From IMG/VR virus record IMGVR_UViG_2931133163_000005: a stretch of 64,000 nt of DNA. One strand, written 5' to 3'. Positions 1,448 to 26,817 of the stretch are shown piece after piece (within the stretch, counting starts at the first letter, position 1; each line of letters starts with the position of its first letter). The notes beneath the pieces were generated by a model. That model had not been told where the DNA came from, ran no database searches, and worked only from the letters and a program-made list of their open reading frames with translations. The position numbers and the translations under genes were made by a program. The stretch is from a virus.

Positions 1448-1899
1448 GCGCTCGCCCGCGAGTGACGCGTCGGATAATCGAAGACAGGCCCGTGCGAGAT
1501 CACGAGCGGCATGATACGCGCCGGTTGCCCATCCGGACGCAGGACCTGGCGCCGCGCGCGGAGACGTCGGTTTCCGGCTACGTCAAACGCATCGAAGAGG
1601 ATCACCTCGACGCGCTCCGGATCGTCCTGAGGGTCGCCTCGGCGCGGCTGGCCGTTGGCTTCCACCATCCAGCCTTCGGAGAAGAACACCCACCGCCGGA
1701 AGCCATCACGCTCGAACTTGAGCGCCATGGCCTTGCGCATCAGGTCCAGGTCAGCGCCGCCCATGCCGAGCGCCGCGATCGTAACGGCTCCGCCGGCCTC
1801 CTGGGCGACGAAGTGGGGCATCATCGCATCGTCAGGATCGAAGAGGACCTCCGCGTAGCCGGAGGCCTGGTCGACGAGGGACCGAAGCGTTCCCATCAC
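1444..1899 (-). CDS. Hypothetical protein
   Basis: 151-aa ORF with 4-nt overlaps on both sides. Confidence 0.75.
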
Positions 1900-2558
1900 G
1901 CCATCCCCAGGGCTTGGCAGTACAGCTCCAGGATCGCCTCCTGCTCCTGGCGCTCGCTGTGGTCCTGCTTGCGGATGCGCAGGATCGTCCGGACGGCCTT
2001 TGCGTCGAAGCCCCGGCCCTTCAGCTCGGCGAACACCTCCTTGATGTTGCCCATGATGCCGGCCTTCTCCTCCTCGAGGCGCTCCAGGCGCTCGATGAAG
2101 GCCTTCAGCTCGTCGGCCGCGACGCCTTCGGCGGCGGTGACGTCGCCGGCGGTGGACAGGCCCGCGGTCATGCCGGCCGCCCCAGCGCTCGAACAGTCCA
2201 CCTCTCCGGTCGTCCGAAGCGCGGGGTCGGCGCCGATCCGCTCCCGTGCGATCCGCGTCATCTCGGCGAAAACGACCGGCAAGAGTTCGAGAGCCTTTGC
2301 ATCGTCGCCGTTGGCCAGGGTGAGCGTGAGGCTCGCCACGGCGCCGGCATTGGCGCGCAAGGTCACGGCGCTGCTGAAGGCAACATCGTCGGTCAAGTCG
2401 AGCAGCTCGCTGAAGCCGATCGTCGTCGTCTCCGTGATGTCGATCAGCATCCGCCGGCCGATGGCAGAGGTCGCATCTCGGGGCGGACGGTCGGCGCTCT
2501 TGCGCCTTGCGGCCGCAGCAGTGCTGATCGCGAGATCTTTGTACTTGGTCGAGGCCAT
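1896..2558 (-). CDS. gapR: GapR/DUF2312 (UPF0335) domain protein with N-terminal extension
   Basis: C-terminus [74 protein letters not shown] is a typical DUF2312 sequence. Confidence 0.9.
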
Positions 2559-2565
2559 GGCGCCC

Positions 2566-2895
2566 TCAGCTCCACACGATGCGGTCGAAGATCACCGCCG
2601 GGCCGGCGATGCAGGGAAGCGTTTCCGGGTCGTCGGCCGGATGGTTGCGCAGCCACGCGGCGCGATAGATCGCGGTGGCCGCCTCGTTGCGGGGCAGGCC
2701 TTCGCCATGGCCGTCCTCGTGGACGAACATTTCGGTGCGGCGCCCTTCGTGGAGTACGGCCACGTGCTCGGGCCGGCCGGTCAGGATCGGCTCCAGGACG
2801 TCGCGCAGCTCGGCGAGTCCGGGATCCCCAGCCATGTCGACGGACCGGTCCTCGCGGGTGCCGTCGGCGCGCAGGATGATGAGGGCGGTCTTCAC
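2566..2895 (-). CDS. Conserved phage protein (DUF3846-like)
   Basis: [18 protein letters not shown]...IAGPAVIF pattern. Confidence 0.55.
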
Positions 2896-3257
2896 GACGC
2901 GGCCTCGGCCGGAGCGCGCTCTGCGACCTGCGGGGGCGACCAGGTGGGCCGCTCCGCCGCCTGGCGCCGAGCGAAGGCGGCCCGGATCTCGGGGACGCGG
3001 CCGAGGGCGAGCTTCGCGGCGAGGCGTCCCGGCGGGTTGTAGCGCAGGCCGGTCGGCAGTCCCTGCATCAGCGCGCGTGCCGGATCCCGGTAGGCGTGGA
3101 CCTGCGCCTCCGTGAAGCCCGCCTGGAACAGGTGGGCCATCGTGCAGGCCTCCTCGGGCCCGGTCGTCCGGTCCTGCATCACCCGCACCATGCGGATGAC
3201 ATGTTCGAGCGCGTCAGGCGCGCGGCGGGCGGCATGGATCATGGACGGCGACGTCAT
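2892..3257 (-). CDS. Hypothetical protein
   Basis: ATG at 3257 overlaps the upstream stop. Confidence 0.65.
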   Translation of the reverse strand: MTSPSMIHAARRAPDALEHVIRMVRVMQDRTTGPEEACTMAHLFQAGFTEAQVHAYRDPARALMQGLPTGLRYNPPGRLAAKLALGRVPEIRAAFARRQAAERPTWSPPQVAERAPAEAAS

Positions 3258-3913
3258 GGGCGGGCCTCCTGAGGCTGCGGGGTGGATCGACGGGGCCGGG
3301 ACGACCGGGCGGACTTCGGTTTGCGGGCCTTCTTCGGTTTGGCGGCCGCGGCTTCCTGCGGGGTGGGACCGCGCCAGGTCTGCGACCACTCAGGCCCGAA
3401 CAGACCGTCGTTGCCCGGCACGATCAGGCGGAGCGCGATCGCACGATCGGCGACGGCCACGCGTACCCGCCGGCCAGATGGCGCCAGCCGGAAACCGCGC
3501 GCGCCATCAGCGCTGACGGTCACCACCAGGACGGCGCCAGCGCTGAGCTCCGCGAGCAGATGCAACACGGGCTTCGCGGTGCGCTTCTTCGGCAGGACGA
3601 CGATCGCCGGCTCGGTCGCGACCGGTCGGGGCGCCTCCGGCTCGCCCGCGCCGTTCCATTCGGCATCCGTGGCGGTCCACGCGCGGCGGCGGGCCTCCGC
3701 ACGGACCTGCAGCTCGACCTCGGCGATCCACGCCTCGATCCGAGCAGCGACGTCGCGCCCAGTCGGGACGAGGTACGTCCAGGGCTCGACCGCAGCCTGC
3801 AGGCGCGGGAACGACTTGCGCAGCCCGACGACGAGCCAGAACTGGCGCGGCAGGCTCACGAGGAAGCCGCCGGAGATCTCCGCGACGCCGATCGGGACCG
3901 GGACGGGCTTCAC
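3254..3913 (-). CDS. Hypothetical protein with basic C-terminal tail
   Basis: GTG at 3913 overlaps the DUF5131 stop. Confidence 0.6.
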   Translation of the reverse strand: MKPVPVPIGVAEISGGFLVSLPRQFWLVVGLRKSFPRLQAAVEPWTYLVPTGRDVAARIEAWIAEVELQVRAEARRRAWTATDAEWNGAGEPEAPRPVATEPAIVVLPKKRTAKPVLHLLAELSAGAVLVVTVSADGARGFRLAPSGRRVRVAVADRAIALRLIVPGNDGLFGPEWSQTWRGPTPQEAAAAKPKKARKPKSARSSRPRRSTPQPQEARP

Positions 3914-5055
3914 GGCGAGATCTCCGGGAAGCCGTCGTACTGGCGACCGTCGAGCAGCCGACCGGCGATGCGCTTGCCGTGCCGCTCCAGCGTCAGGGCT
4001 GGCCCGAGGAGATCGTCGTCGCGCGTCGGGATGGCGAGCTTCACCAGCGGCGCGTGCGGCCGCTCCAGCGTCAGGACCTCGCCGCGGTAGGTGCGACGCG
4101 CCGACGGCTCGGCGTTGAACTCCGCGCCCGGGCCCCACTCCCCCCATTGCTTGAACAGGAACGGCACGCCGGCGCCGAGGCACTGATCCCGGACCACACG
4201 AAACCAGTCGGGATGCGCGGCAGCTGCATCGCAGCCGGACATACCGCCGGCGATCACCTGCGCGCGGCGGCCGAGCGCTAGGAAGTCCCGCGGCAGGTCG
4301 AGCGGCCCGATCGCGGGCTCGTAGGACAGGAAGATCGTGTAGCCGAGCGCGGCGAGCTCCCGCATCGCGGGCCAGCGCGTGTCGAACTCCGCTTGGCGTT
4401 CGGCTGAGAAGCCGAGCCACACGTTGATCGGACGATCGGGCCACCAGCGCGGCCCTTCCATCCAGTCGTAGGTCGGGAAGGCGGCGCCCGCCGGCGGCGC
4501 GCCCATCGTGTCGAGGAAGTCCGCGAAAAGCCGGGCCCGGCCGCTCGTGTGTGCCGCCCGCACCGCATCCGGTCCGCGCGCCATGGTGGGCCCGAGGTCC
4601 TCAGGCTCGACGTCGTGCCAGCGCCGGACGAAGTCCAGCATCACGTCCGGCCGCTTCGTGAGCAGCTGCAGGATGTGTCGGCCCTGGATGCGGTAGGCCA
4701 TCATCCAGATCCGCATCGCGTAGCCGAGCGGGCGCGCCTCGTGGAACAGGTCGCTCATGTCGCCCACGAAGATCAGCGACGGCCGGCCGACGCCGAGCCG
4801 AGGGCTGGACGCGCCGCGCCATTTCAGCGGCCATGTCCAGGTCGGGTGATCGAACGGCAGGGCCGTCAGGTGCCCGTTGAAGACAGGCTTGCCCTTCACG
4901 GGCGTCGTCGTGCCGGCGTAGAGCGGGTGCCGGGCGAGGCGTGTGCCGGCGAGCTGCTGGGCGTAGCACGGCGCACAGCCGGCGCTCCGGATCGAGCAGC
5001 CGCCGATCGGGTTCCAAGTGGCATCCGTCCACTCGATAGGGCTCGGCCCACTCAC
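3910..5055 (-). CDS. DUF5131 (phage Gp37/Gp68) three-Cys radical-SAM-like protein
   Basis: IEWTDATWNPIGGCSIRSAGCAPCYA (CX6CX2C), FVGDMSDLFH, LQLLTKRP, FLSYEPAIGP, FLFKQWGEW. Confidence 0.92.
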   Translation of the reverse strand: MSGPSPIEWTDATWNPIGGCSIRSAGCAPCYAQQLAGTRLARHPLYAGTTTPVKGKPVFNGHLTALPFDHPTWTWPLKWRGASSPRLGVGRPSLIFVGDMSDLFHEARPLGYAMRIWMMAYRIQGRHILQLLTKRPDVMLDFVRRWHDVEPEDLGPTMARGPDAVRAAHTSGRARLFADFLDTMGAPPAGAAFPTYDWMEGPRWWPDRPINVWLGFSAERQAEFDTRWPAMRELAALGYTIFLSYEPAIGPLDLPRDFLALGRRAQVIAGGMSGCDAAAAHPDWFRVVRDQCLGAGVPFLFKQWGEWGPGAEFNAEPSARRTYRGEVLTLERPHAPLVKLAIPTRDDDLLGPALTLERHGKRIAGRLLDGRQYDGFPEISP

Positions 5056-5321
5056 GACGCCACCTCGTACAGATCCTCGGCGATCACCGGGCCGTTGAGG
5101 AAGCGGATCGCCTCGTCGAGGTCGGCGCAGCGGTGGCCATCGACCGACCAGGTCACCTGCGCCGGCGAGGTCCGGGTGCCGCGGTAGTAGTGCTTCACCA
5201 GCCGCGGGTGCCGGTCGCAGCGCCACTCGAACATGGCGCCGCCGCGAGCGAGCGTCGCGTGAGAGATCATGGTCGACGGCGAGCCGCGCAGGCTGTCCCG
5301 GCTGATGGGTTGATCAGCCAT
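5052..5321 (-). CDS. Hypothetical protein
   Basis: ATG at 5321; coupled overlaps. Confidence 0.6.
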   Translation of the reverse strand: MADQPISRDSLRGSPSTMISHATLARGGAMFEWRCDRHPRLVKHYYRGTRTSPAQVTWSVDGHRCADLDEAIRFLNGPVIAEDLYEVAS

Positions 5322-5733
5322 GATCGTGCCCTCCACCGTCGACGCCGGCCGTGCACAGGTCGTCGGCCGCCCAGCTGCAACCTTCCTCGCAGGCATCGTT
5401 CTGCGAGCATCCGCAGCACCGGCAGACGCCGCCGAGGCTCGCGGGAATGCGGGGTCGATCGTCCGAGGCGTCGAGCGCATCGTCCGGCAGGACCTCGTCC
5501 ACCGCATGGCTGAGGGCCGCCTCCATCTCGTTGCAGGCCGTGAAGCCGACGCGCTCGTAGAGCTCGGGCAGATCTTCCGAGTCGGCCCGTTCGGCGAGCC
5601 GAAGGGCGCAGACCATCTCCAGGGCGGCGATGCCGACCTGCGCACGCGCATCCTCGCCGAGTTTCGACCACGCTTCAGCGCCGTCGAAGCGCTCGGGAGC
5701 TGGGCGCGCCAAGAGTTCGGAGATCTCCGGCAT
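5314..5733 (-). CDS. Hypothetical protein with C-terminal Cys-rich motif
   Basis: CRCCGCSQNDACEEGCSWAADDLCT motif, common in phage proteins. Confidence 0.7.
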   Translation of the reverse strand: MPEISELLARPAPERFDGAEAWSKLGEDARAQVGIAALEMVCALRLAERADSEDLPELYERVGFTACNEMEAALSHAVDEVLPDDALDASDDRPRIPASLGGVCRCCGCSQNDACEEGCSWAADDLCTAGVDGGGHDHG

Positions 5734-6053
5734 CAGCGCGGCTCCTCGGTCGGCTTCACGGTCAGGACCACGTCACAGCCGACGGCTGTCTTCAGCTGCT
5801 CGGCGAACTGTTCGATGCGGGCAGCGATCGCGCCCGGCTGACCGGGATCCGGGACCGTGATCTCGGCCGAGAGCTGCGGGATGTTCCACAGCGCCTTCGG
5901 CAGCCGGACCTCGACGCGCATGGCGCGCTCGTCGGGCGAGAGCCGCGGGGACTCGCGATTGAGGCGCACGTTGCCCGCCTGGTCGAACGTGAGCCAGAGC
6001 CCGAAGATGATCTCCGTCGGCGTGGACCGGTGGTGCTTGCCGGACGCGCTCAT
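5733..6053 (-). CDS. Hypothetical protein
   Basis: ATG at 6053 overlaps the upstream stop. Confidence 0.65.
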   Translation of the reverse strand: MSASGKHHRSTPTEIIFGLWLTFDQAGNVRLNRESPRLSPDERAMRVEVRLPKALWNIPQLSAEITVPDPGQPGAIAARIEQFAEQLKTAVGCDVVLTVKPTEEPR

Positions 6054-6418
6054 GCCAGGACTCCGAACAGATCCCCGGTGATCGGCTTGCCGTTCGTCGC
6101 TACAGCCGGCCGCACGCCGTGCTCGGCCAGCGCACGCAGGTCCGGGATCATCTCCAGCTCGACCTCGGCCCGGGTGTATTCCCAGCCGGGCAGGCAGGCG
6201 TGCTGGAAGCGGTCGTTGACCTGGAGGAAGCCAGGCAGGTTCGCCCAGGTGACGTGGCATTCGCCGCGGCGGGGGCTGCTGAGGGTGAGAAACACGACAT
6301 CGCGCGCGCCGCGGGTCGAGGGATCGGCGATGGCGGCGGCCAGGGCGCGAGCGGCGATCGCCGCATCGGCGCGCTCCTGCATGGTCGGCGGTGGGAGCTT
6401 TGGGGCGCGGCGGGTCAT
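6050..6418 (-). CDS. Hypothetical protein
   Basis: ATG at 6418 overlaps the upstream stop. Confidence 0.65.
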   Translation of the reverse strand: MTRRAPKLPPPTMQERADAAIAARALAAAIADPSTRGARDVVFLTLSSPRRGECHVTWANLPGFLQVNDRFQHACLPGWEYTRAEVELEMIPDLRALAEHGVRPAVATNGKPITGDLFGVLA

Positions 6419-6774
6419 GCTGCGACCTCGGCTGCCGAGGGCCGCGCGTCGGCGCGGAGCACGATGACGGGCTTGAACCGGAGGATACTGATCCGCGTCG
6501 GCACCGGCTCGCCGCGGGCCTTCATGGCCTCGATTTCGGCGTCGGAGGGCGCCGCCGGGTCGTACTGCATCACCATCCAGTACGGCTTGCCGCCAGCTCG
6601 GATGAAGGCGTGATCGAACGCGCCGTCGAGGCGCCGCCACATCTTCCCGGGGGTCGTGCCCGTCGGGTAGCTGGCGCTGTAGTCCCGCAGGTCCTCGAAC
6701 TGCTGAGGGGTGAGGCGCAGGCGGGGAAGCGTCGCGACGAAGTCGCGCGGCTGGGGTACGACGCGCTCGCTCAC
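6415..6774 (-). CDS. Hypothetical protein
   Basis: GTG at 6774 overlaps the upstream stop. Confidence 0.65.
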   Translation of the reverse strand: MSERVVPQPRDFVATLPRLRLTPQQFEDLRDYSASYPTGTTPGKMWRRLDGAFDHAFIRAGGKPYWMVMQYDPAAPSDAEIEAMKARGEPVPTRISILRFKPVIVLRADARPSAAEVAA

Positions 6775-6992
6775 AGCTCGTACCCCTTCAGGTCGTGGTA
6801 GGCCCGGATCATCCGGGTGAGATCGCCGGACTCGATCGCCTGCTGGCCGCGCTCGACCGCGGCCTCCATCAAGTCGGCGGCGATGAAGCCCATCTCGACC
6901 TGGCGGTACTGGCCAGCGATCTTGGTGACGCGGACCATCTCGCGGGGGAGCGCGGCGGCGAGGGTGTCGGACTGGGGGCGGTCGGTCGTCAT
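6771..6992 (-). CDS. Hypothetical protein
   Basis: 73-aa coupled ORF. Confidence 0.7.
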   Translation of the reverse strand: MTTDRPQSDTLAAALPREMVRVTKIAGQYRQVEMGFIAADLMEAAVERGQQAIESGDLTRMIRAYHDLKGYEL

Positions 6993-7834
6993 ACCGCCGC
7001 CTCCGCAGAGGCTTCGCGGTCGCCGACCAGCAGCTCCACGAAGGCGAACTTGTCGACCTTGCGGATGTCGATGTGGCCGAGATGGTCGAGAATGAACCGG
7101 CGCAGCTCGGCCGGCTCGATCGTCCAGACGTCACCGCCCTGCTGGATCCGCCGCTCCGTGCCGCGCCGGCCGGCCTTAAGGCGCCCATCGATGCAACGGG
7201 TCGTGACGAACTTCTCATCGACCCCCAGGATCCTCGCGGCGGCGTGCGCCGAGAGCGTCTCATGCGTGCGGCGGGACAGGTTCAGTCGCTTGGCCTTGAC
7301 CGTGATCGAGGTCGCCGATCGGCTGAAGCCGTGCTCGCGGAAGATCCGCGATGCTTTCTTGGGGTCATGCAGCGGTACACGCCGCATGAGCGCGACCTCG
7401 GCATCCGTCCAGTTCGGCTCCTTGAGGCGCGGCATCGTCAAACCGAGCTCCGCCATCCGCCGCGAGAGCTGGTGACGGCGCACGTCCAGCTCGACCGCGA
7501 GCGCCGCCACCGCGCCGCGCCGCGTCAGCGTTGGAAAGGCGTCGCGGATCCGCGCGTCCATCTCCGGGGTGAACTCGGCCGGCTTCCGCTCGAGCGGCGC
7601 CGCCGGCGCCCTGAGGCCGAGCGCGTTCGCCTTCGCGTAGATCTTCGCCAGGGAATGCCGCGGCAGGAACGGCACACAGCCGGAAGGTCCCACGGCGCCG
7701 TAGCGCGAGCGCAAGATCGCGATCTCTTCTTCGGTCCAGTACCGCTCGTGACGCTTGCCTGGGACGTACGGTGCCGAGATCCGCGGCTCGTGGGCGCGTT
7801 CCTTCTGGAAGCTGACGGGCTTGAGGGCGTTCAT
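6989..7834 (-). CDS. DNA-binding protein with three Myb/SANT-like repeats and a C-terminal HTH_17-like domain
   Basis: Repeats begin WTEEEIAILR, FTPEMDARIR and WTDAEVALMR; then TLSAHAAARILGVDEKFV...GRLKA...WTIEPAELRRF. Confidence 0.7.
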   Translation of the reverse strand: MNALKPVSFQKERAHEPRISAPYVPGKRHERYWTEEEIAILRSRYGAVGPSGCVPFLPRHSLAKIYAKANALGLRAPAAPLERKPAEFTPEMDARIRDAFPTLTRRGAVAALAVELDVRRHQLSRRMAELGLTMPRLKEPNWTDAEVALMRRVPLHDPKKASRIFREHGFSRSATSITVKAKRLNLSRRTHETLSAHAAARILGVDEKFVTTRCIDGRLKAGRRGTERRIQQGGDVWTIEPAELRRFILDHLGHIDIRKVDKFAFVELLVGDREASAEAAV

Positions 7835-9135
7835 CGGCCGAGCTCCCGGGCCAGCTTGCGCTCGACGCGCACCGCGCGATCGGCGCCGTCCCCGTCGAAT
7901 TCCAGCGCGCCCTGCGCATCGAGTAGCGCCAAGCCGCCAGCGAGCTCCGGTTCCCCTATTTCGAGGAACGCCGCGAGCTCCGCGACGCGAGCGCCTTCCG
8001 GAGCGAGTGGCAGGAGCGCGCCCCACGCCCGGCCGGCGGCGGCGAAGCCGGGGTCCCGGATGAAGGCGCGCACGGCGCGATACCCGGGTGAGCTCGTGCC
8101 ACGCGTCTCCGCGTCCATGGCGCTCGCCTCCTCAAGCGCGTCGACGTCGAGGAGGCGCGCGGCCGTCTCCGCGTCGAGGCGCGCCGGGCCGGTCAGGCGC
8201 GGCGAGGCACCTCGATGGTATGTCCGCACCGGTCCGACCCGCAGGACGCACGGCGCCCGGGAGAAGGCTGCGCCGACGGCCACGAAGTCCCCCGGCTTGA
8301 GGAGCGGCAACCGGTCCGAGGCGCGTCGGAAATCCCATCCGATCGTCTCCGCTGCCCGGCGGATGTCGAGGTCGAGCGTGCTCAGGCCGATCAGGAAGTT
8401 CTGCGCCTCGGAGACTACCGATTTGGCCAGCCGGCGGATCTGCTGTGTGGCCAAGACGCCAGCGAGCCCGCGCTTGCGGCCGCGGCTCATCAGGTCGGCG
8501 ATCGCGCCGATCGAAGCGTTGCGCACGGAGGGCGGCACGTCGGAATGACCGCCGTGCGGCGCGAGCAGGTGCGCCTCGTCGATGACGACGAGCGTCGTGT
8601 GCCAGTGCTCCGGTGCGACCTCGACCAGGCCGAAGATGAGGCCGGTCGCCATCGCCATCTGTGCCTCGCGCGGCAGATCGGAGAGATCCACGACGACGGA
8701 GAGGCGATGCTCGCGCAGGCGGCGCGCCAGCCGGGTCATCGCCGCGGCGTCGAAGCGATGCGCCTCGATCTTGAGGTGACCGAACGCGGCCGGGACGCCG
8801 GCGAACTCACCCTCAACGTCGATGATGACCTGCTGCACCCGCTCGGCGGTCTGCTCGACAAGGCGCCGCAGCGTCCACGACTTGCCGGCCCCGGACATGC
8901 CCTGGACCAGGAGCCGCCCCTCGAGGAGCTTCTGCAGGTCGACGCCGACGGCGCCGCCCGCGTCCGCCTCGCCGATGACGACGTCGTTGAGGCGCGGCGG
9001 AAGGGGAGCCGGGCGGCTCGGCATTGTCCTAGCAGCCGCCGGCGGAGCGGCAGCAACGGCGCCGGTGTGGGCGGCCTCTTCGGCCAAAAGCGCCAGGACC
9101 TCGTCGTTGACACGATCGTCGATGCGCAGGCTCAT
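7831..9135 (-). CDS. HerA/DUF87-like P-loop ATPase with C-terminal wHTH-like segment
   Basis: Walker A QGMSGAGKS, Walker B LVVIDEAH, SRGRKRGLAGVLATQ motif. Confidence 0.85.
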   Translation of the reverse strand: MSLRIDDRVNDEVLALLAEEAAHTGAVAAAPPAAARTMPSRPAPLPPRLNDVVIGEADAGGAVGVDLQKLLEGRLLVQGMSGAGKSWTLRRLVEQTAERVQQVIIDVEGEFAGVPAAFGHLKIEAHRFDAAAMTRLARRLREHRLSVVVDLSDLPREAQMAMATGLIFGLVEVAPEHWHTTLVVIDEAHLLAPHGGHSDVPPSVRNASIGAIADLMSRGRKRGLAGVLATQQIRRLAKSVVSEAQNFLIGLSTLDLDIRRAAETIGWDFRRASDRLPLLKPGDFVAVGAAFSRAPCVLRVGPVRTYHRGASPRLTGPARLDAETAARLLDVDALEEASAMDAETRGTSSPGYRAVRAFIRDPGFAAAGRAWGALLPLAPEGARVAELAAFLEIGEPELAGGLALLDAQGALEFDGDGADRAVRVERKLARELGR

Positions 9136-9323
9136 CCGATGCGCCTCCCCGTATCGCGGGCCTCGGCCCGGGCGTTGTCGTTGGCGGCTGCTTCCGCCGC
9201 GGCTTTCCGCGCCGCGCGCCTCCGCAGGCGCTCGTCCAGCACCGGGATCAGGATGATCGCGACGACGATCGACAGGACGAGGAGGCCCATAGCGATGGCG
9301 AGCGGGGCGGAGCGGCCGGTCAT
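9132..9323 (-). CDS. Small single-TM protein
   Basis: Hydrophobic LAIAMGLLVLSIVVAIILIPVL segment followed by a basic tail. Confidence 0.65.
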   Translation of the reverse strand: MTGRSAPLAIAMGLLVLSIVVAIILIPVLDERLRRRAARKAAAEAAANDNARAEARDTGRRIG

Positions 9324-9826
9324 CGTCCGGCCTCCTCCAGCAACACGGCCGCACGCTCAGACAGGTCCGGGCGGAAGTGCGCGAGGCGCAGCTGCAGCGG
9401 ATCGCGACCGCCGTCGGGCCCGGGGCCGGACAGCGTGTGCAGCGGCTCGTCGAGGATCGCGGCCAGAAGGTCAGCGAGGCGTTCCAGGAGCGGGGCGGTC
9501 GCGTTGGCGACGATGCGCGGGGTCGCGTCAGCAGGATCCGCGCTCTCTCTGAGGCTGGCGAGCAGCTCGGGCGGAACGGGCGCGGATACGCCGGCGTCGA
9601 GTGCCGCGATCCGGCAGACCTCGGCCAGCCGTACATCGAGGCCGATCTGCCGATCACCGGCCGTCGCGCCCCACCAGGCGAGCTCGCCCGTCTTGTTGTC
9701 GGTCCAAGGGGCAATCGTGCAGACGACGGCACCCCCGACCACAAGCTCGATCACCGACTCGTCGGCGGCGATCCGCCAGGAGCCGGTGCGGGCGGCTGAG
9801 GCGACGAGCTGCAGGCCCGGCTTCAT
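9320..9826 (-). CDS. Hypothetical protein
   Basis: ATG at 9826 overlaps the upstream stop. Confidence 0.6.
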   Translation of the reverse strand: MKPGLQLVASAARTGSWRIAADESVIELVVGGAVVCTIAPWTDNKTGELAWWGATAGDRQIGLDVRLAEVCRIAALDAGVSAPVPPELLASLRESADPADATPRIVANATAPLLERLADLLAAILDEPLHTLSGPGPDGGRDPLQLRLAHFRPDLSERAAVLLEEAGR

Positions 9827-12534: not shown

Positions 12535-12535
12535 G

Positions 12536-13018: not shown

Positions 13019-13019
13019 G

Positions 13020-13292
13020 TCAGACCCTCCCCGCGCGGCGCAGGACCTGGCCGCCCGGGCGCCAGGCCTCGAAGACGACGGCCAGATGCGCCGCGCACCA
13101 GCTGCTGGGCTTGCCGCTGACGCGGGGCGCGATGGGGCGCCCGCAGAAGCGGTGCGCGCCGCCGTGGCTCGAGCACGGGAAGCGGCACTGTCCGTCCTTC
13201 AGCTCCAGGCAGGCGAAGGTGCCGAAGGCGGGCAGCGGCGGCGCGGCAGGAGCCGGTTCGGGCGCGGGCTGCTGGCGGGCGCGGGCGGCCAT
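13020..13292 (-). CDS. gcrA: GcrA-family (C-terminal Cys/His domain) protein
   Basis: LELKDGQCRFP....HRFCGRP......SWCAAHLAVVF matches the GcrA motif LLELxxxxCRWP..FCG..YCxxH. Confidence 0.75.
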   Translation of the reverse strand: MAARARQQPAPEPAPAAPPLPAFGTFACLELKDGQCRFPCSSHGGAHRFCGRPIAPRVSGKPSSWCAAHLAVVFEAWRPGGQVLRRAGRV

Positions 13293-13293
13293 G

Positions 13294-14168: not shown

Positions 14169-14182
14169 GAACATGGAATTTC

Positions 14183-14525: not shown

Positions 14526-15068
14526 TCAGAAGGGGCGCTTCGGCTTGGCCGGCTGGCAGAAATTCTGCTGGATGAAGGCCGTTGCGCGAAGCACCTTTCG
14601 CGTCTCGTTGATGCCGCTGACGGGTGTTTCAATCGCGTTCCAACACCGCAGGCCGGCGTTGTCTTTCATGCACCACGCCGCTTCTCCTTCTAAAAGGAGG
14701 CTTGGCGTCAGGTTGTATCGGGGCGTCGAGGTCCGATACTCGCCTGTCAGCTGCGAAAAATTGTACTGCTGGACAACAGGATTGCTGTCGTTGAGCTTTC
14801 TGGACTGGAAAGAGCAGTCCCGGCCCGGCATCCGCTGAAGCTGAAGGATGAAGTTGCCGGGCATCTCGACGAGCACGGTACTGTCGTCGACCCGCGTGAA
14901 CGTTTCCTGCCCTTGGTACGGGTAGAGGACGCTCGCAACCGCATCGATCAGGCCGGGGCTGTCGAGGTTGAGTCCGTGTCCGTCCTTGGCAGAGGCACGT
15001 GCCGTCCAGCCGAACGCCATCAAGGCGATGATCGCCGCTGCGGCGTATCGCGTCACGGGCGCCTCCAC
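14526..15068 (-). CDS. Exported hypothetical protein downstream of cI
   Basis: Signal-peptide-like TRYAAAAIIALMAFGWTARASA; four Cys; visibly lower GC; overlaps the cI stop. Confidence 0.7.
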   Translation of the reverse strand: MEAPVTRYAAAAIIALMAFGWTARASAKDGHGLNLDSPGLIDAVASVLYPYQGQETFTRVDDSTVLVEMPGNFILQLQRMPGRDCSFQSRKLNDSNPVVQQYNFSQLTGEYRTSTPRYNLTPSLLLEGEAAWCMKDNAGLRCWNAIETPVSGINETRKVLRATAFIQQNFCQPAKPKRPF

Positions 15069-15832
15069 CGTTGGACCTGCCGAACCGCGCTGGCAACGAA
15101 GGCAACAATCTCCGCTTCGATCCCGCCGCCCTCTTCCTCCAGGAAGAACTCCAGTGGTGTCAGCCCTTTCGGGATGATGATCGGCTTCTGCCAGCGCTCA
15201 TGATCCGAGTCGGGCCAGAGTTCGACGTGTGTGTCCGTTCGCAGGTAGCGCTTGGCCGTGCGCTGTCGCAGCAGGCCGGCGTTCCGGCGCAGTTCGACGA
15301 TGACGAGATCGCCGTCCTTCGGCCGATAGCGGGTCGGGATAGCGGAGATGCAGACGAGCACGTCGCCATCGGCCGCGAAGCGGTTGATCGACTCACCCCG
15401 CACGACCAGGCCGTACTGGTGCTCCGACGGCCAGCGGGGATCTGAGCGAACGGGAACAGGATCGAACGCAGGCTCGTCCACAAAATCGTCGATCTCGATC
15501 CAGCGCCCAGCCGCAACCTCGCCAACCACCGAAAGAAGGTCTTCGTCCCTCTCTGCGGTAGCGGCTCGCGCGCGCTCCAGCAGCACATCCTCAAATTTCG
15601 GCGTGGTTGCAGAGGTGATGTCAGCCAGGACGTCGCTGATCTCCGAGGGCTGCACTTTGAAAATTTCGGCAGCTTTGGCGATCCGCTCGGCTTTGAGCCC
15701 TCGATCGCCGTCCTCAATCTTGATGTAGCCGCCCTTTGACATGCCGAAGGCCGCCGCAGCCTGCTCCTGCGTCATGCCGGACGCCTCGCGCAGACGTTTC
15801 AGATTGTTCCGTGGGCGGCCTATTTTCCCCAT
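15053..15832 (-). CDS. cI: CI-like repressor (XRE HTH + S24 peptidase domain)
   Basis: LKRLREASGMTQEQAAAAFGMSKGGYIKIEDG HTH; VVGEVAAG cleavage site; RGES (Ser) and TAKRY (Lys) catalytic motifs; start at 15832. Confidence 0.92.
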   Translation of the reverse strand: MGKIGRPRNNLKRLREASGMTQEQAAAAFGMSKGGYIKIEDGDRGLKAERIAKAAEIFKVQPSEISDVLADITSATTPKFEDVLLERARAATAERDEDLLSVVGEVAAGRWIEIDDFVDEPAFDPVPVRSDPRWPSEHQYGLVVRGESINRFAADGDVLVCISAIPTRYRPKDGDLVIVELRRNAGLLRQRTAKRYLRTDTHVELWPDSDHERWQKPIIIPKGLTPLEFFLEEEGGGIEAEIVAFVASAVRQVQRWRRP

Positions 15833-15922
15833 AGCGGGGACAATCGCCGAACCGCGTTCGCGCGTCGCTCCCCATGTTGGGACAGAGTCCTCTTGACGTA
15901 GATCCCCGAATTGGGGAATCGT
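15826..15922 (+). promoter_or_regulatory. OR/PR control region
   Basis: Operators TCCCC-ATAGC-GGGGA 15826-15840 and TCCCC-GAATT-GGGGA 15903-15917; imperfect site 15869-15883; TTGACG at 15893-15898. Confidence 0.8.
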
Positions 15923-15929: not shown

Positions 15930-16175
15930 ATGCGGTTGCTCGACTACATGCGAGAGGAAGGACTCGACGACGAGGCGTTCGCCGAACGCCTCGGCGAGTG
16001 CGGTCCGTACGCCGTGAAAAAGTGGAAGTACGGCGAGCGCGAGCCCGACGCCTCGACGATCGTCCGTATCGAGAGGGCGACCGGAGGCCGTGTCGGTCTG
16101 TCCGATTGGGCGGCCCAGTCCGATGCCCGAAGGGCCAAGCGCTTGGCCGTTCCCACCGAGGGAGCTGCCGCCTGA
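15930..16175 (+). CDS. cro: Cro/YdaS-like HTH repressor
   Basis: LLDYMREEGLDDEAFAERLG...AVKKWKYGEREP...IERATGGRVGLSDW; divergent from cI. Confidence 0.85.
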   Translation: MRLLDYMREEGLDDEAFAERLGECGPYAVKKWKYGEREPDASTIVRIERATGGRVGLSDWAAQSDARRAKRLAVPTEGAAA

Positions 16176-20453: not shown

Positions 20454-21341
20454 ATGCGCGCCCCGCTCGCAGCCCTCGCCCTTGTCCTCGCCAGCAGTTC
20501 GGCCGCGCTCGCGGCCGAGCCCCCGACCTTCCGTCTGTGCACCGGCTCCGAATCCGGCAACTACTTCCGGGCCGGCCACATGCTGAAGAGCAAGGCCGGA
20601 GGCCTGAAGATCGAGGTCGTGCCGACGCAGGGTTCGCTCGACAACCTGGACAAGCTCTCGGCCGGGCAGTGCGACGGCGCCTTCGTCCAGTCGGACGCGC
20701 TCCTGGTCTACTCGTCGAAGAACGCGGCCGCGCTCTCGACGATCGAGCGCGCCGGCGTGCTCTACCAGGAGCAGGTGCACCTCATCTGCAACCGCGGCGC
20801 GGGGATCTCCCGCATCACGGACCTGGGCAAGGCCAACACCGTCGCGGTGGGCCCGGACGGCTCAGGCGGCCGCACCACCTGGGACGCCTTCGCGCTCGCC
20901 GACAAGAAGCGCTTCGGGCCGGTGAACGTCGACACCCGCTCGGGCGTGCGCGCCCTGTCCGCCGTGGCCGACGGCAGTCAGGTGCAGTGCGCGCTCTGGG
21001 TCGGGGCGCTCAACGCGTCCTTCATCAAGAACGATGCGCAGGCGCAGGGCGACCGCGTCGTGCTGGTCCGCTCCGACGATCAGGAGATGGTGGGAGCGGC
21101 GAAGGATGCCCGGGGCCAGCCGGTCTACAGCTACGGCTCGATACCGGCTGGCACGTACCCGCGGGTCCAGCCGGGCGGCCTCGTGTTCGGCACCAAGGCC
21201 CTCGACACGATCGCGGTCGACGCGCTGTTCGTCACGGCGATCCCGTGGGTGAACGCCAACGAGCGCGCCTACGACGGTCTGCTGCGCGCCTTCACGGCCG
21301 CCAAGCCGCAGATCCAGGCGATCGCGCAGCCGCAGGACTGA
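20454..21341 (+). CDS. TAXI-family TRAP solute-binding protein
   Basis: Signal peptide; LCTGSESGNYF, PTQGSLDNL, DGAFVQSDA, LYQEQVHL, VAVGPDGSGG. Confidence 0.88.
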   Translation: MRAPLAALALVLASSSAALAAEPPTFRLCTGSESGNYFRAGHMLKSKAGGLKIEVVPTQGSLDNLDKLSAGQCDGAFVQSDALLVYSSKNAAALSTIERAGVLYQEQVHLICNRGAGISRITDLGKANTVAVGPDGSGGRTTWDAFALADKKRFGPVNVDTRSGVRALSAVADGSQVQCALWVGALNASFIKNDAQAQGDRVVLVRSDDQEMVGAAKDARGQPVYSYGSIPAGTYPRVQPGGLVFGTKALDTIAVDALFVTAIPWVNANERAYDGLLRAFTAAKPQIQAIAQPQD

Positions 21342-21773: not shown

Positions 21774-23074
21774 CAACCTGGTGCGCCATACCGCGCGCCC
21801 TCCCCAGTCCAAGTCTGAGTTCGCAAGGGCGCGTGATGCGTGGTCCGAGGCCGTGGCTGTTGAGCGAGGTGGCGACCGCTGCCCGTCCGATTCTGGCCGT
21901 CGAGCGCGACGATGCGAGGGCGAGAGAATTGGGCGGAACCCTTGTCAAAATTAGACAAGGGTCGAGGGCAACGGGTGCAACGGCAGCGCGATGGGGTAAG
22001 AGCCATCAGTGGCTCGACTGGCTGCTGAAGGTCAGCGACGCAGCCGTTGCAGATCCCATCCGGCTCGGCGCGGCGCTGAACTTCCTCGATGCCGGCGGCG
22101 CTCCGAACGTCGCATGGTCCTGCATCTCGTCGGCGCGCGATTCAGAGGCTACGATCACGCTGCCGGCGCTGAAGCGTCAGGGCCGGCAGCTGCTCACGGA
22201 TGCTTGGAAGGGCCGTTGGAGCCTCGTCGACATCAACCTGGCGGCGCGCGCGCTCCTTGAGGCCCGGCTCGGCCACGCGCCTGTCATCGGCGGCACCTTC
22301 GACGCCGCTCAGCGGCGCGCGCTCGCCGACCTCGGCAAGCTCTGGGACGAGAGCGCCGACTTTCTGCTGCGCACCTTCGAGGTCTGCGAGGCCGCCGCGG
22401 TCGATCCGGACCGTTTCGGCTTCCTCGTCCCGGTCATGTGCAAGGCCGACAACCCGACAGCCGCCTGGAATCGCATGCGGGCGGTGGGCGACGAGCAACG
22501 CTGCCTGGAGCTGATCCCGTACGATGGATCCGTCCAGACTGCGGTGCTCGACCCGCCCTGGAAGGAAGTGAACGTGTCTGCGGCGGCCGGACACGCCTAC
22601 GCGAAGATGTCGCTCGACGAGATCCGCGCACTGCCGTTGCAGCGGTGGACCTGGGAGGATTCCCACCTCTACCTGTGGTTCATCAACGGCGTCTGGGGCG
22701 ACATCCCATCGATTGTTCAGGAGTGGGGCTTCGAGGTCAAAACAGTCCACACTTGGGTCAAAGAGGTCAGCGACCTCAGCCGCAACGATCCGAAGTTCAG
22801 CCTCGGACACGAGATGCGGAATACCACTGAGCATTTCGTCTTTGCTCGTCGTGGATCCAAGCTTCGCATGCCTCGGCGCTCCGCGACGTATTCAACGGCG
22901 ACCCATCACCGTTGGCCGCTGGGCGCCAACAGTGAAAAGCCGGACGCCTTCTACGATCTCGTGAGGCAGTGCTCCTACGGACCGTTCGGGGAAGCGTTTC
23001 AGCGCAAGCCGCGCGAGGACTTCATCAACCTCTACCGGCAGGCCGAGCCGCCTCGGCTGGAGGCCGCCGAATGA
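21770..23074 (+). CDS. MT-A70-family adenine methyltransferase with a large N-terminal domain
   Basis: VLDPPW, YAKMSLDEIRALP, LYLWF, WGFEVKT..TWVK, RNTTEHFVFARRG, SEKPDAFY. Confidence 0.9.
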   Translation: MTTWCAIPRALPSPSLSSQGRVMRGPRPWLLSEVATAARPILAVERDDARARELGGTLVKIRQGSRATGATAARWGKSHQWLDWLLKVSDAAVADPIRLGAALNFLDAGGAPNVAWSCISSARDSEATITLPALKRQGRQLLTDAWKGRWSLVDINLAARALLEARLGHAPVIGGTFDAAQRRALADLGKLWDESADFLLRTFEVCEAAAVDPDRFGFLVPVMCKADNPTAAWNRMRAVGDEQRCLELIPYDGSVQTAVLDPPWKEVNVSAAAGHAYAKMSLDEIRALPLQRWTWEDSHLYLWFINGVWGDIPSIVQEWGFEVKTVHTWVKEVSDLSRNDPKFSLGHEMRNTTEHFVFARRGSKLRMPRRSATYSTATHHRWPLGANSEKPDAFYDLVRQCSYGPFGEAFQRKPREDFINLYRQAEPPRLEAAE

Positions 23075-23726: not shown

Positions 23727-23760
23727 CGTGGCGACCGGGAGCAGGCCGCGTAGCGGCCCC

Positions 23761-23788
23761 GACTCCCACCAGACTCGGACTCTGAATC
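23761..23788. promoter_or_regulatory. Intergenic cluster of four GANTC (CcrM) sites
   Basis: GACTC 23761, GACTC 23772, GACTC 23778, GAATC 23784. Confidence 0.6.
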
Positions 23789-23849: not shown

Positions 23850-24242
23850 ATGAGCACGCCCACCACCAAGGTGTTGATGTCGGCCGGCAACCCGGCCGGC
23901 CGGAAGCTCGAGGAGCTGCTGGTCGAGATCGCCGAGGACCTGCGCATCAAGAACGATGCCCTCGAGGCGGATCCCTCGCCGACTTCGCGCGCGGTCCGGA
24001 TCAACAACCTCGGCATCCTCGACTGCCTGGCGCTCGCCGGGGTTCGCCAGCTCGACACGCTCCGGCGGCTCGACCTGATCGGCCCCGACCGGGGCCCGGG
24101 CGGCGCGCCGCGCATCGGCGCCGGCGCGGCCGACGTGCCTGCGTCCACTGCCGGCATCGCCCCCGAGCCCGTCGCTGCACCGACCGTGACGTCCGGCCCC
24201 GACCAGGTCGTGCCGGCCCCGACTGTCCTGCCCGCCACCTGA
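23850..24242 (+). CDS. Conserved hypothetical protein
   Basis: LMSAGNPAGRKLEELLVEIAEDLRIKN globular N-terminus. Confidence 0.7.
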   Translation: MSTPTTKVLMSAGNPAGRKLEELLVEIAEDLRIKNDALEADPSPTSRAVRINNLGILDCLALAGVRQLDTLRRLDLIGPDRGPGGAPRIGAGAADVPASTAGIAPEPVAAPTVTSGPDQVVPAPTVLPAT

Positions 24243-24591
24243 AGCGCGGAGCCGCCCAGCCATGAACCCGCAGCTCTGGCCTCTCCCTCGCGGTCCCCCG
24301 TGCCCGGCCTCCCAGATCCTCGCGCGCCCTGCATCGGGACTACAGCGCCGGCTTGAGGACTGATGCCGCCCGGTCCGGCCGCGCCATCCCGCCCGACCCG
24401 CAGGCCCGTTCCCACGATCCCAGACGCCTCTTCTTGGCGGGGTCGTGCAGACGGCCCGCGCCGCGAGCTTCCCACCCGCCACACCGACCCGACCGGCATT
24501 CGCGACCAGCGATTCAGCCGACGGGTTTCTGCGTGCCCGGAGCCGGACTGGCTTCGCGGTCGGACGATGAAGCCTTGCCCGGACCACGACC

Positions 24592-25671
24592 ATGAGCGTC
24601 GAAGCCATCAGCCACATCATGCGGACGCACATCCCCGATGGCGTCGCCAAGCTCGTCGCCATGGTGCTCGCCGACTATGCCGACCCGGTGAGCGGCCGCT
24701 GTTGGCCGAAGATCCCGACCCTCGCGATCCAGTGCTCGCAGTCCGAACGCACCGTGCAGCGCAAGCTCAAGCTGCTCGAGGAACTCGACGTTCTCCACGT
24801 CGAGCCGAACACGTCGGGCGACCGCAAAGGCAACGTCTACGTCCTGCACCTGCGCGGCGTGCCCCGGGCGGGTCCCGGCCCCGGCGAGCGCCGGCCCAAG
24901 ACGAGCGACCGGTCGACGGATCGCAGGGTCGGCGCCAGCCACGACGCCGGCGCGGATACGGGTGACACACAGTCACCCGTTCGAGGCGCGGACGAAGCCG
25001 CGTCTGTCACCCCAACGGGTGACACCGCTGACACCCGACGGGTGACACTGCTGTCACCCCCAAAGGAATCCCCCAGAGAATCCACCAGGGAATCCATCAA
25101 GGGGGAATCCCCCGAGAGAGATTCACCTGGCACCGGACGCCCCCCCGCGTCCGCTGACGCGGCCACGGCCCCCAAGGGGGCTCCCTCTCCCCGAGCGGTT
25201 TTGTGTCCCGATGGATTCGCGCCGGAGGGGCGCCACTACGCGGCTGCCGAAGCCATCGGCTTCGACGCCGCCTTCGTCCGGCAGATCGCCGCCAGCATGC
25301 ACCGCTGGTCACACGCCAACGCCCATCGCCCGATCGCCCGGAAGTCCGACTGGGCGCTGGCCTTCGACAGCTTCCTCGACACCGCCCTCCGCGAGGCCGC
25401 CGAGCGTGCCGCCCGCGAGACCCGCCGATCCGCCCCCGCATCCGCTTCGCCCCGCCGCTCCACGAACGGCGGACTCGCCCTCGTCGCCGAGATGATTGGA
25501 TTGCCCCATGACCCTGCCGACCTCCTCGATGTCCTCGGCCTACAGTCGGGCCGTGCTCCCGCTGCTCCCGACGCGGGAGTCGGATCGCTTCATCGCGCAG
25601 TTCACGAACCGGTTGGAGGACACGCCGGGCTCCTTCCGGCGCAAGCGCCTGCCCGTCGCTTCGGCGCCTAA
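24592..25671 (+). CDS. Replication initiator (HTH_36-type, lambda O-like)
   Basis: AKLVAMVLADYAD...CWPKIPTLAIQCSQSERTVQRKLKLLEE..NVYVL; internal iterons. Confidence 0.85.
   Translation: MSVEAISHIMRTHIPDGVAKLVAMVLADYADPVSGRCWPKIPTLAIQCSQSERTVQRKLKLLEELDVLHVEPNTSGDRKGNVYVLHLRGVPRAGPGPGERRPKTSDRSTDRRVGASHDAGADTGDTQSPVRGADEAASVTPTGDTADTRRVTLLSPPKESPRESTRESIKGESPERDSPGTGRPPASADAATAPKGAPSPRAVLCPDGFAPEGRHYAAAEAIGFDAAFVRQIAASMHRWSHANAHRPIARKSDWALAFDSFLDTALREAAERAARETRRSAPASASPRRSTNGGLALVAEMIGLPHDPADLLDVLGLQSGRAPAAPDAGVGSLHRAVHEPVGGHAGLLPAQAPARRFGA
24960..25124. repeat. Putative replication origin: GGGTGAC-N5/6-GTCACCC iterons followed by five GANTC sites
   Basis: Palindromes 24960-24978, 25017-25036 (1 mismatch), 25040-25059, half-site 25006-25012; GANTC at 25066, 25078, 25090, 25105, 25120. 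Confidence 0.75.
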
Positions 25672-26326
25672 CCGGGCGCAGCAGGACTGGCTGGAGCAAC
25701 GGCGGGACGAGCTGCGGCGCGCGCTCGTGCCGACGCCGGGCCCGGAGGCGAACCGCGAGATCATGCTCCTGATCGCCAGCAAGGCGAACTTCGGTGCCGA
25801 CGCACAGGAGCTCACCACCAAGGTCGGGTTCTACGCGCAAGCGCTCGCCGGCGAGCCGACATGGGCGATCGAGCGCGCTCGGCTCCGGTTCCGCCAGCCC
25901 GGCTGGCGCTGCCTCTGGGACGGCAAGGGTTGCCCGTCCGACACCGACGTCGTCGCCGAGTGCCGGTACGAGACCCTGCCAATCGAGACGGAGCTGGCGC
26001 GGATCGAGGCGATCCTTGGCGCCGAGCTCTACGACACCGGCGCCACCGACGACGATCGCGCCAACGCGGTCGCTCACTGGGAGACGGTGAAGGCGGAGAT
26101 GCGCGGCGAGTCCGTGATCACCGAGCAGACGGAGGACGAGATCTCCGCCGAGCGCGCCTCCATGGCGCGCGCCAACGACCGCTTCCGCGAGCGAGCCCGG
26201 GCCGAGGCCGAAGCGCAGTGCCGCGGCCAGGCCATGTGGGGTCGCCTGCCGATCAGCGACGAGCTCGCCCGCCAGATCGGCCTGCGCGTGCCGATCCCCG
26301 CCGACCACGAAGAGGAGGTCCACTGA
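25508..26326 (+). CDS. Replication-associated protein (lambda P position)
   Basis: Directly follows and overlaps the initiator; PTWAIERA..RF..W..P motif. Confidence 0.65.
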   Translation: MTLPTSSMSSAYSRAVLPLLPTRESDRFIAQFTNRLEDTPGSFRRKRLPVASAPNRAQQDWLEQRRDELRRALVPTPGPEANREIMLLIASKANFGADAQELTTKVGFYAQALAGEPTWAIERARLRFRQPGWRCLWDGKGCPSDTDVVAECRYETLPIETELARIEAILGAELYDTGATDDDRANAVAHWETVKAEMRGESVITEQTEDEISAERASMARANDRFRERARAEAEAQCRGQAMWGRLPISDELARQIGLRVPIPADHEEEVH

Positions 26327-26382
26327 GCCGACGGCCCCGGCCGGCGCGCGAACCCACCAGCATCACCAGCACAGGATCATCC

Positions 26383-26817
26383 ATGTCCAACACCCAATAC
26401 GACGTCATCGCCCTCACCGCCGGCATCGTGGCGGCCTACGTCGGCCGGCAGGCCGTGTCCGCGACCGATCTGCCCGGCCTGATGCGCACGGTTCGCGACG
26501 GCCTGGTCGCGCTCCAGGAGCCGGCGCCGGCGGCGGCGGCGGCCAAGCCCGAGGGCTTCCGCCTGACGGCCACCGAGATCCGCAAGTCGATGAAGCCCGA
26601 CGCGCTGATCAGCTTCATCGACGGCAAGCCGTACAAGACGCTGAAGCGGCACCTGACGTCCCACGGCCTGACGCCGGACAGCTACCGCACCCGCTTCGGC
26701 CTGCCTGGCGACTATCCCATGGTCGCAGCAGGCTACGCCGCGCAGCGCTCTGCGCTGGCGAAGGCGATCGGGCTGGGCGTGCCCGGCGCCCAGGCCGCAC
26801 GGCAGGCAGCGGAGTAG
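26383..26817 (+). CDS. mucR: MucR/Ros-family transcriptional silencer
   Basis: LTAGIVAAYV, IRKS..PDALISFIDGKPYKTLKRHLTSHGLTPDSYRTRFGLPGDYPMVAAGYAAQRSALAKAIGLG. Confidence 0.95.
   Translation: MSNTQYDVIALTAGIVAAYVGRQAVSATDLPGLMRTVRDGLVALQEPAPAAAAAKPEGFRLTATEIRKSMKPDALISFIDGKPYKTLKRHLTSHGLTPDSYRTRFGLPGDYPMVAAGYAAQRSALAKAIGLGVPGAQAARQAAE

Follow-up and report, generated by a model that had tools for sequence, protein, structure and literature searches.

Can a temperate phage couple the opening of its replication origin to adenine methylation at GANTC, and would the mark be written by the host or by the phage itself? This question is raised by the 64-kb stretch of DNA analyzed here (IMG/VR record IMGVR_UViG_2931133163_000005, referred to as the window), which is a lambdoid, Methylobacterium-type temperate prophage. 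Two dense clusters of GANTC sites, here named array A and array B, are located at the head of the replication unit and within the replication initiator gene, respectively, and a gene for an MT-A70-family adenine methyltransferase lies just upstream of them. Taken together, the depletion of GANTC, the arrays at origin and replication operon and the adjoining methylase suggest that replication of this phage is gated by methylation. A link between phage replication and GANTC methylation had been proposed in a preliminary description of this DNA, and we judged it to be the best reading as well. The role which that description gave to three homologues of host regulators (GapR, GcrA and MucR) is seen differently here.

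The window consists of phage DNA throughout and has a GC content of ~70%. Relatives of its initiator protein sit in the genomes of Methylobacterium sp. UNC378MF, M. gossipiicola and Methylobacterium sp. Leaf123, and for this reason the host is taken to be a Methylobacterium.

GANTC depletion and the two arrays

Gene identities, array statistics, conservation and co-occurrence were computed in this study. The window contained 59 GANTC sites compared to 319 ± 17 expected from dinucleotide shuffles. With an observed to expected ratio of 0.19 this was the strongest depletion among the 16 interrupted palindromes of the form XYNY'X'. GATC was commoner than expected (668 vs. 420). Early-left and late genes had approximately 0.5 GANTC sites per kb, the immunity and replication region 2.3-2.8 per kb; about 2 per kb were found in a ~30 kb sample of other Methylobacterium DNA. 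All 18 GAATC/GATTC sites of the window were located within 15.9-25.2 kb.

Array A (23761..23788) consists of four sites in 28 bp, at positions 23761, 23772, 23778 and 23784, three of them in a 6-bp register. The array occupies the intergenic space that separates a 164-aa gene from a 130-aa gene, and heads the unit leading from g49 to the O-like initiator. Array B (25066..25124) consists of five sites in 59 bp (25066, 25078, 25090, 25105 and 25120; spacing 12, 12, 15 and 15 bp) and lies within the initiator gene. Both clusters had been reported in the preliminary description; their positions are exact, and placement statistics confirmed that they are non-random. With 59 sites randomly placed in 64 kb, the chance of at least four sites in 28 bp was P = 1.5e-4 and that of at least five sites in 59 bp was P = 3.5e-5. 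The two arrays together hold 9 sites in 87 bp. Since the phage purges GANTC five-fold, keeping them needs positive selection on GANTC itself.

A tandem triple GANTC pattern was searched in three whole Methylobacterium genomes (4.5-6.4 Mb) and matched only at related prophages, and the reversed pattern used as a control gave no match in the same genomes.

The initiator gene and the predicted origin

The replication initiator is encoded at 24592..25671 on the plus strand. It is lambda O-like, matching the PHROG families phrog_1032 ('replication initiation protein', E = 1.5e-20) and phrog_391 ('O-like'), and carries an N-terminal helix-turn-helix domain (HTH_36, PF13730, E = 7e-11). Inside the gene, at 24958..25060, three iterons were found as direct copies of ACGGGTGACAC, each being half of a GGGTGAC-N5/6-GTCACCC palindrome. 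Relatives carry iterons of the same type.

Array B follows directly 3' of the iterons. The GC content of its 70-bp stretch was 0.57, the lowest value measured there, compared to 0.66 for the iterons and 0.70 for the initiator gene; in the related locus L022 the equivalent stretch had a GC content of 0.48. In its place, array B corresponds to the unwinding element of lambda-type origins. An O-like initiator, internal iterons and an adjoining segment of lower GC content are thus all present, and the origin is predicted to lie here. Lambda ori within gene O is alike in its O-like initiator and in having the iterons inside the own coding sequence, followed by the least GC-rich segment. The phage differs from it by its palindromic GGGTGAC/GTCACCC iterons and by a presumed unwinding segment that is built from methylation sites.

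An interpretation of array B as a set of DnaA boxes was rejected, because the sites have opposite orientations in the two clades and nothing but the palindromic GANTC core persists.

Conservation of arrays and methylase in related proviruses

Relatives of the initiator were found at 13 viral and 4 genomic loci. Co-occurrence was determined in a set of 11 related proviruses including the window; several of these records are 46-80% complete, so that some absences are soft. The nearest relative was an IMG/VR provirus of 64,130 bp (G001). A megablast search of 14-27 kb and 37-60 kb of the window against 50,697 phage records gave no match.

In the close clade, formed by G001 and G002 (initiator 67-70% identical), both arrays were found at the same offsets. 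The distant clade comprised eight loci, two of which are genomic copies of viral contigs. Their initiators are 41-43% identical, and both arrays were present in the same places, array A with three to four and array B with four sites. Conservation of the clusters, on which the preliminary description had made its proposal depend, was therefore observed even at this distance. Every relative with this initiator carried array B with four or five sites in the same place, with varying flanks, spacing and orientation. Between the clades the flanks could not be aligned, and unit length, spacing and orientation of the sites differed; GANTC cores alone were common to both. The equivalent of array A in the diverged clade is located ~20 nt upstream of the methyltransferase start codon.

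An MT-A70 gene was detected by Pfam search in all five relatives ascertained by their initiator. In the complete set it was present in 11 of 11 proviruses, as were array A and/or array B; with the exception of two partly different records, each provirus had both arrays. GapR was found in six and MucR in four of the 11, and the GcrA-domain gene in two of six records tested. MT-A70 is therefore the only gene that always accompanies the GANTC arrays. Further proviruses were found via alignment of the methylase. Two of them (L048 and L050) kept array A together with the 130-aa gene and had a different initiator and no array B, and another one (L051) kept the initiator and array B.

The arrays are kept across diverged relatives and absent elsewhere in the three Methylobacterium genomes. 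They are hence a phage-specific, selected cis-element and not a common host promoter motif.

The region around array A showed some features of its own. In W-type phages the gene next to follow array A encodes the 130-aa protein (23850..24242, plus strand; phrog_26726, function unknown), and its homologue follows array A in L048 and L050 too, despite the other initiator type downstream. A hairpin (GGCCGC-gta-GCGGCC, 23744-23758) directly precedes the array. Two compensatory pair changes were seen among five relatives, and in G002 the pairing is kept through two double changes. As a separate observation, a distal CGGGAGC segment may base-pair with the ribosome-binding region of the gene that follows. 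A function of array A as part of a structured leader RNA was rejected: most of the array is left unpaired by the consensus fold, and five close sequences show minimal covariation.

The MT-A70 methyltransferase and a second methylase

The MT-A70-family N6-adenine DNA methyltransferase is encoded at 21929..23074 on the plus strand, with an alternative GTG start at 21770. It had been overlooked in the preliminary description. The domain was identified well above the Pfam threshold (PF05063, E = 1.4e-15; 58 bits vs. 23.9), and the protein matched phrog_359 ('DNA methyltransferase', E = 2.8e-26). The catalytic-type motif DPPW is visible in the translation and is invariant in four MT-A70 orthologues; orthologues in relatives share 36-43% identity. 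When the enzyme was compared to phages by tblastn, only uncharacterised MT-A70 enzymes were found.

Several mutually dissimilar methylases of alphaproteobacterial phages have been shown to be GANTC-specific, and all of them are encoded just upstream of replication genes, a placement from which the authors concluded that they act in replication (PMC5537653). For one phage enzyme of the prokaryotic MT-A70 type, it has been shown that it copies the specificity of host Dam and recognises GATC (PMC7556043).

A second methyltransferase of 284 aa was found at 33563..34417 (plus strand). It belongs to the beta class (N6/N4; PF01555, E = 2.8e-13), has DPPY in its translation and is 23% identical to a Methylobacterium CcrM-like enzyme. 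We rejected it as the partner of the arrays because G001 and G002 keep the arrays and lack this gene. It is a variable accessory. Directly after it, between early and late genes, a serine recombinase with Resolvase and Recombinase domains is encoded (34560-35393).

A proposed methylation-coupled replication module

We propose that array A, array B and the MT-A70 gene form a methylation-coupled replication module, an alphaproteobacterial analogue of P1 oriR with Dam, and we give this reading an even chance of being correct. From the results above we infer the GANTC specificity of the enzyme and the dependence of origin and promoter on methylation. The conserved cassette comprises the MT-A70 methyltransferase, array A heading the initiator unit and array B within the origin after the iterons. 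After induction, rightward transcription would produce the methylase, which would methylate GANTC independently of the cell-cycle-restricted CcrM of the host. Full methylation of array B may then favour opening or licensing of the origin beside the initiator-bound iterons. Hemimethylated daughter origins would quickly be re-methylated by the phage enzyme without waiting for CcrM, and repeated initiations would therefore be possible. Through array A, expression of the replication unit may come to depend on this methylation too, the array serving, for instance, to recruit GcrA that is bound to sigma70-RNA polymerase. The three regulator homologues are separate, optional add-ons.

Several points weigh against this proposal. 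That the MT-A70 enzyme methylates GANTC is suggested indirectly, by its co-conservation with the arrays and its position upstream of the replication genes. BLASTP against PhiLM21_p027, a proven GANTC enzyme, gave no significant alignment, and PhiLM21_p027 itself had no match to MT-A70; homology of the two was therefore rejected. No cluster of GANTC lies close to the replication genes of PhiLM21, which means that methylases mimicking CcrM are not generally accompanied by arrays. Six more distant MT-A70 homologues on contigs of lower GC content (among L052-L055 and L059-L061) likewise had no arrays. In W-type phages array A is located ~700 bp downstream of the MT-A70 gene and not before it. A scan of 13.9-26.5 kb for sigma70-consensus promoters and terminators gave no usable match at array A or array B. 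Of the four sites of array A, one fits the extended motif of GcrA, as does none of those in array B. Furthermore, a SeqA-like protein reading hemimethylated DNA is not known from Alphaproteobacteria. Finally, array B doubles in this phage as a tandem repeat of 12-15 bp with GGAATCC at the end, and might serve for protein binding.

This last point leads to a different explanation, by which the arrays are ordinary protein-binding repeats (accessory sites of the initiator, or sites for g49 or a host factor), GANTC is incidental, and the MT-A70 enzyme serves anti-restriction or has another target. In that case, all that is left of the finding is an ordinary prophage that has picked up some host regulators. 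The tandem repeat in array B would be accounted for, as would the same small gene that always follows array A in W-type phages, and the GANTC specificity of the methylase is itself predicted. However, repeat units, spacing and orientation change between the clades and GANTC alone persists, arrays A and B have only GANTC in common, and changes from GAGTC to GACTC preserve the site. Retention of the sites against a five-fold purge of GANTC elsewhere also requires selection on the site itself, and the methylase is co-conserved. We regard this explanation, the main rival of our proposal, as unlikely.

GcrA-, MucR- and GapR-like proteins

The preliminary description had named three homologues of alphaproteobacterial global regulators. 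GapR and MucR were confirmed above the Pfam thresholds. The third held for the sigma70-interacting domain (SID) of GcrA and failed for GcrA as a whole.

The GcrA-like protein (13020..13292, minus strand; 90 aa) is encoded by the third gene of the early-left operon. Its match to PF07750 remained below the threshold (18.6 bits vs. 26.9) and covered profile positions 99-145 of 155, that is the C-terminal part. The family of this protein has 15 members, all from Methylobacterium and all annotated as hypothetical. For 14 of the 15, GcrA was the sole Pfam family matched, in all cases below threshold and with a best E-value of 1.1e-4. In hhalign the family aligned to residues 167-214 of a 228-aa Methylobacterium GcrA (E = 1.6e-4, probability 51%). 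An AlphaFold2 model had a core of 74-81 in the predicted local distance difference test; the N-terminal 24 residues are rich in Ala and Pro and of low confidence. The top two PDB matches of the model were 5yix_B, the SID of Caulobacter GcrA, and 7ye2_G, GcrA in a transcription complex. The match to 5yix_B had a probability of 0.96, a target-normalised template modelling score of 0.72 and a root mean square deviation of 2.5 Å; the Foldseek E-value of 0.14 is weak as the domain is tiny. GcrA was found by this fold search alone, since phmmer and the family profile did not find it among the PDB sequences.

Region 2 of sigma70 is the docking site for the SID of GcrA, which is a zinc domain of the CCCH type (C-X14-C-X9-C-X2-H; PMC5887438). 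In the phage family a CCCH motif is invariant as well (C36, C50, C66 and H69; spacing X13/X15/X2). Residues W120, G129, F130, F132, Y142 and Y151 of GcrA align with phage F38, G45/A46, H47, F49, W65 and F74, and the positions of W120, F132, Y142 and Y151 stay aromatic or hydrophobic. Based on sequence and model, the 90-aa protein is thus a stand-alone homologue of the sigma70-interacting domain. We infer that it binds sigma70 and predict that it probably occupies the GcrA groove on region 2. Two features count against such binding, namely the altered Cys spacing (X13/X15 vs. X14/X9 in Caulobacter GcrA) and an invariant His at the position of F130, which is essential for sigma binding in Caulobacter.

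No counterpart of the N-terminal domain of GcrA which reads N6-methyladenine (m6A) in GANTC (residues 1-45 in Caulobacter) was detected by Pfam or hhalign. Lacking this DNA-binding, methyl-reading domain, the 90-aa protein cannot read GANTC, and the part of a GANTC reader, for which it had been proposed, has to be dropped. Binding to sigma70 region 2, should it occur, would make the protein either a competitor of GcrA or a cofactor that is blind to DNA. A GcrA relative reduced to the SID is a candidate natural inhibitor or mimic of GcrA.

The gene order HNH, 113 aa, GcrA-domain gene, 160 aa recurs on an unrelated contig. Apart from the phage, an extra small ORF matching only the C-terminal sigma-interacting part of GcrA was seen in three of three Methylobacterium genomes (L037, L038 and L039). 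The one in L037 (1378-1656, 92 aa) is located beside the gene of a large multi-pass membrane protein. GcrA relatives without a DNA-binding domain may hence be a wider family than in this phage. In the related provirus L051 an 80-aa ORF with a CxxC...C-x2-H pattern (5555-5797) lies directly upstream of the MT-A70 gene and may be another small zinc protein of the GcrA-domain kind.

The Ros/MucR-family protein (26383..26817, plus strand; 144 aa) is full length. It passed the Pfam test with 134.7 bits (PF05443 ROS_MUCR, threshold 25.4; E = 2.3e-39) over profile positions 2-123 of 123, and no PHROG family matched it. Its gene follows the replication genes after a gap of 56 nt; in related loci extending 10 kb further MucR was missing at the equivalent position right after these genes. 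The protein contains no Cys, and the same was true for the copy in G002 (L008 11746-12180). It is therefore unable to build the Cys2His2 zinc site known from Ros, the prototype of the family. Zinc-free members of the Ros/MucR family occur in Mesorhizobium. The phage MucR without cysteines may bind DNA and shield it, perhaps at GANTC sites as well. MucR has been reported to occlude GANTC from CcrM (PMC5172544).

The GapR-domain protein (1896..2558, minus strand; 220 aa) is encoded in the distal part of the early-left operon. The domain (PF10073, GapR_DNA-bd) spans residues 147-218 and was found with 107 bits (threshold 22.6; E = 2.8e-31) over all 72 profile positions (1-72). In contrast to stand-alone GapR (~90 aa) the protein has an N-terminal extension of 146 aa without a family match, and it matched the C-terminal end of the long phage family phrog_4212 (E = 4.5e-33). 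This fusion probably handles overtwisted DNA in phage replication or transcription. GapR in a phage has been reported before (PMC12185513).

According to the preliminary description these proteins and the arrays may act as one phage-borne copy of the host cell-cycle/epigenetic circuit, which would time replication or the lysis decision to the CcrM cycle and adjust that cycle by decoys. All four parts are indeed present in the window, MucR and GcrA are both known to act on GANTC, the latter by reading its methylated form (PMC5887438), and GANTC sites occur at the rightward promoter PR (see below). The genomes of related hosts have the necessary genes, too: three of three Methylobacterium genomes used as stand-ins held one strong PF01555 enzyme of ~400 aa with DPPY (CcrM-like) and one true GcrA each, so that the presence of CcrM in the host, which that description presupposed, is borne out for these stand-ins. 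However, the three genes occupy three separate places within two operons, each comes and goes on its own among array-bearing relatives as given above, and the GcrA-like protein has no DNA-binding domain. That the phage has a conserved adenine methylase of its own speaks for independence from the timing of the host; it more likely writes the mark itself. Since MucR, GapR and GcrA-domain genes vary among relatives that keep the arrays, the regulators are variable accessories over two operons and not a conserved circuit. A single borrowed circuit is thus quite improbable, and the 'decoy' roles of the three proteins are conjecture.

Very unlikely is a silencing function, in which the arrays, methylated by CcrM once per cycle or hypomethylated through MucR, would silence the prophage origin and replication operon in the lysogen and the phage methylase would only protect virion DNA: MucR-dependent hypomethylation does alter promoter activity in Caulobacter and Sinorhizobium (PMC5172544) and in W-type phages the MucR gene is found two genes downstream of the origin, but most array-bearing relatives are without a phage MucR and the operon is already silenced by CI repression of PR.

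The methylation-coupled replication module can also be extended to a self-contained phage switch. Here the MT-A70 writer would license an unwinding element built from GANTC and feed back on its own operon via the second array, and in some members it would be helped by a GcrA fragment displacing host GcrA from sigma70 and by a zinc-free MucR shielding the arrays. We consider this extended version doubtful. If true, it would represent the first phage origin shown to be gated by m6A outside Dam/GATC and the first natural anti-GcrA protein.

Comparison with known systems

What is understood of replication control through adenine methylation comes mainly from the Dam/GATC systems of oriC, P1 and Vibrio chromosome 2. 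By analogy, P1 oriR with Dam appears to be the closest functional counterpart of the module. P1 oriR and E. coli oriC (GATC, Dam, SeqA) are alike in having adenine-methylation sites beside initiator repeats, where the duplex must open. In contrast, the sites are GANTC and not GATC here, the methylase of the host is restricted by the cell cycle, a SeqA is not known, and the phage replicon brings its own methylase in the same operon; the phage case is known from its sequence alone. A precedent for replication that needs methylated DNA was given by Abeles & Austin 1987, as cited in PMC2865523.

CcrM-like enzymes of other phages (PhiLM21_p027, Phi2LM21_p21, Phi3LM21_p21 and those of Paracoccus prophages) resemble the present case in coming from alphaproteobacterial temperate phages, in being unrelated to CcrM, in their position just upstream of replication genes and in the proposed replication role (PMC5537653). 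They differ from the MT-A70/DPPW enzyme of the window, which has no similarity to PhiLM21_p027 and a predicted specificity. GANTC arrays at the origin are not described in the passages of that paper considered here, and PhiLM21 is without arrays.

The origins of repABC replicons are GANTC-rich and located within repC, and coupling to the cell cycle has been proposed for them (PMC6090056). They share with the phage an origin inside the initiator gene that is rich in CcrM sites and are, along with the phage methylases that mimic CcrM, the nearest parallels from Alphaproteobacteria. The phage differs in its initiator family, in being neither plasmid nor chromid, in having tight phased arrays instead of scattered sites and in its own methylase.

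Caulobacter GcrA (5YIX, 7YE2) and the 90-aa protein are alike in the CCCH zinc domain, which docks on sigma70 region 2 in the former, and GcrA was the best structural match in the PDB. The phage protein differs by consisting of the SID alone, lacking the N-terminal methyl-DNA domain and the linker, besides the sub-threshold Pfam match, the altered Cys spacing and the His in place of F130. A phage-borne GcrA relative has a precedent in the GcrA homologue gp222 of phage phiCbK (PMC3556154).

Methylase, four-site array, initiator and origin with five-site array form a compact replicon of ~3.5 kb that is conserved across diverged phages. It is a small portable system for asking whether m6A at GANTC licenses origin opening, is suited to asking for the target of an MT-A70 bacterial methylase, and bears on why many alphaproteobacterial phages put a methylase before their replication genes.

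Immunity region and further features of the prophage

The early-left genes (1-14051, minus strand) form a leftward operon. The CI-type repressor (15053..15775, minus strand) carries HTH_3 and a peptidase S24 autopeptidase, and a Cro-like helix-turn-helix protein (15930..16175, plus strand) is encoded by the first gene of the rightward operon. The start of a rightward operon was also located at ~17.1 kb. Late genes include those for a gpA-type large terminase, a lambda-family portal, capsid protein E, a tail sheath and a GH108 endolysin.

In the right operator (OR) region (15826..15920) operators of the form TCCCC-N5-GGGGA were found at 15826 and 15903, and a third copy at 14086 represents the left operator (OL). 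The GANTC sites at PR, likewise noticed in the preliminary description, were verified: those at 15885 and 15916 flank the -35-like hexamer TTGACG and abut the right-hand CI-type operator. The homoimmune relative G002 has the same operators and keeps both sites, one of them as GACTC instead of GAGTC.

Between OL and a small plus-strand ORF (14244-14510), the stretch 14147-14200 contains a near-consensus DnaA box (CTATCCACA) at ~14150 and a GTTC-N7-GTTC motif of the alphaproteobacterial SOS-box type at ~14183-14197. A periplasmic solute-binding protein (20454-21341; PF16868, NMT1_3/TAXI-like) with a signal-peptide-like N-terminus is encoded in the rightward early operon; it has no transporter partner and is conserved in G002 (L008 6190-7077). 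Four nt past the MucR stop codon starts the gene of a 493-aa classic AAA ATPase (26822-28303; PF00004, E = 1.6e-35). Most of the ~30 other leftward genes of the early-left operon are without a family match, and the operon also encodes a DUF5131 protein (3910-5055, E = 2e-54) and a HerA/FtsK-like P-loop ATPase (7831-9135).

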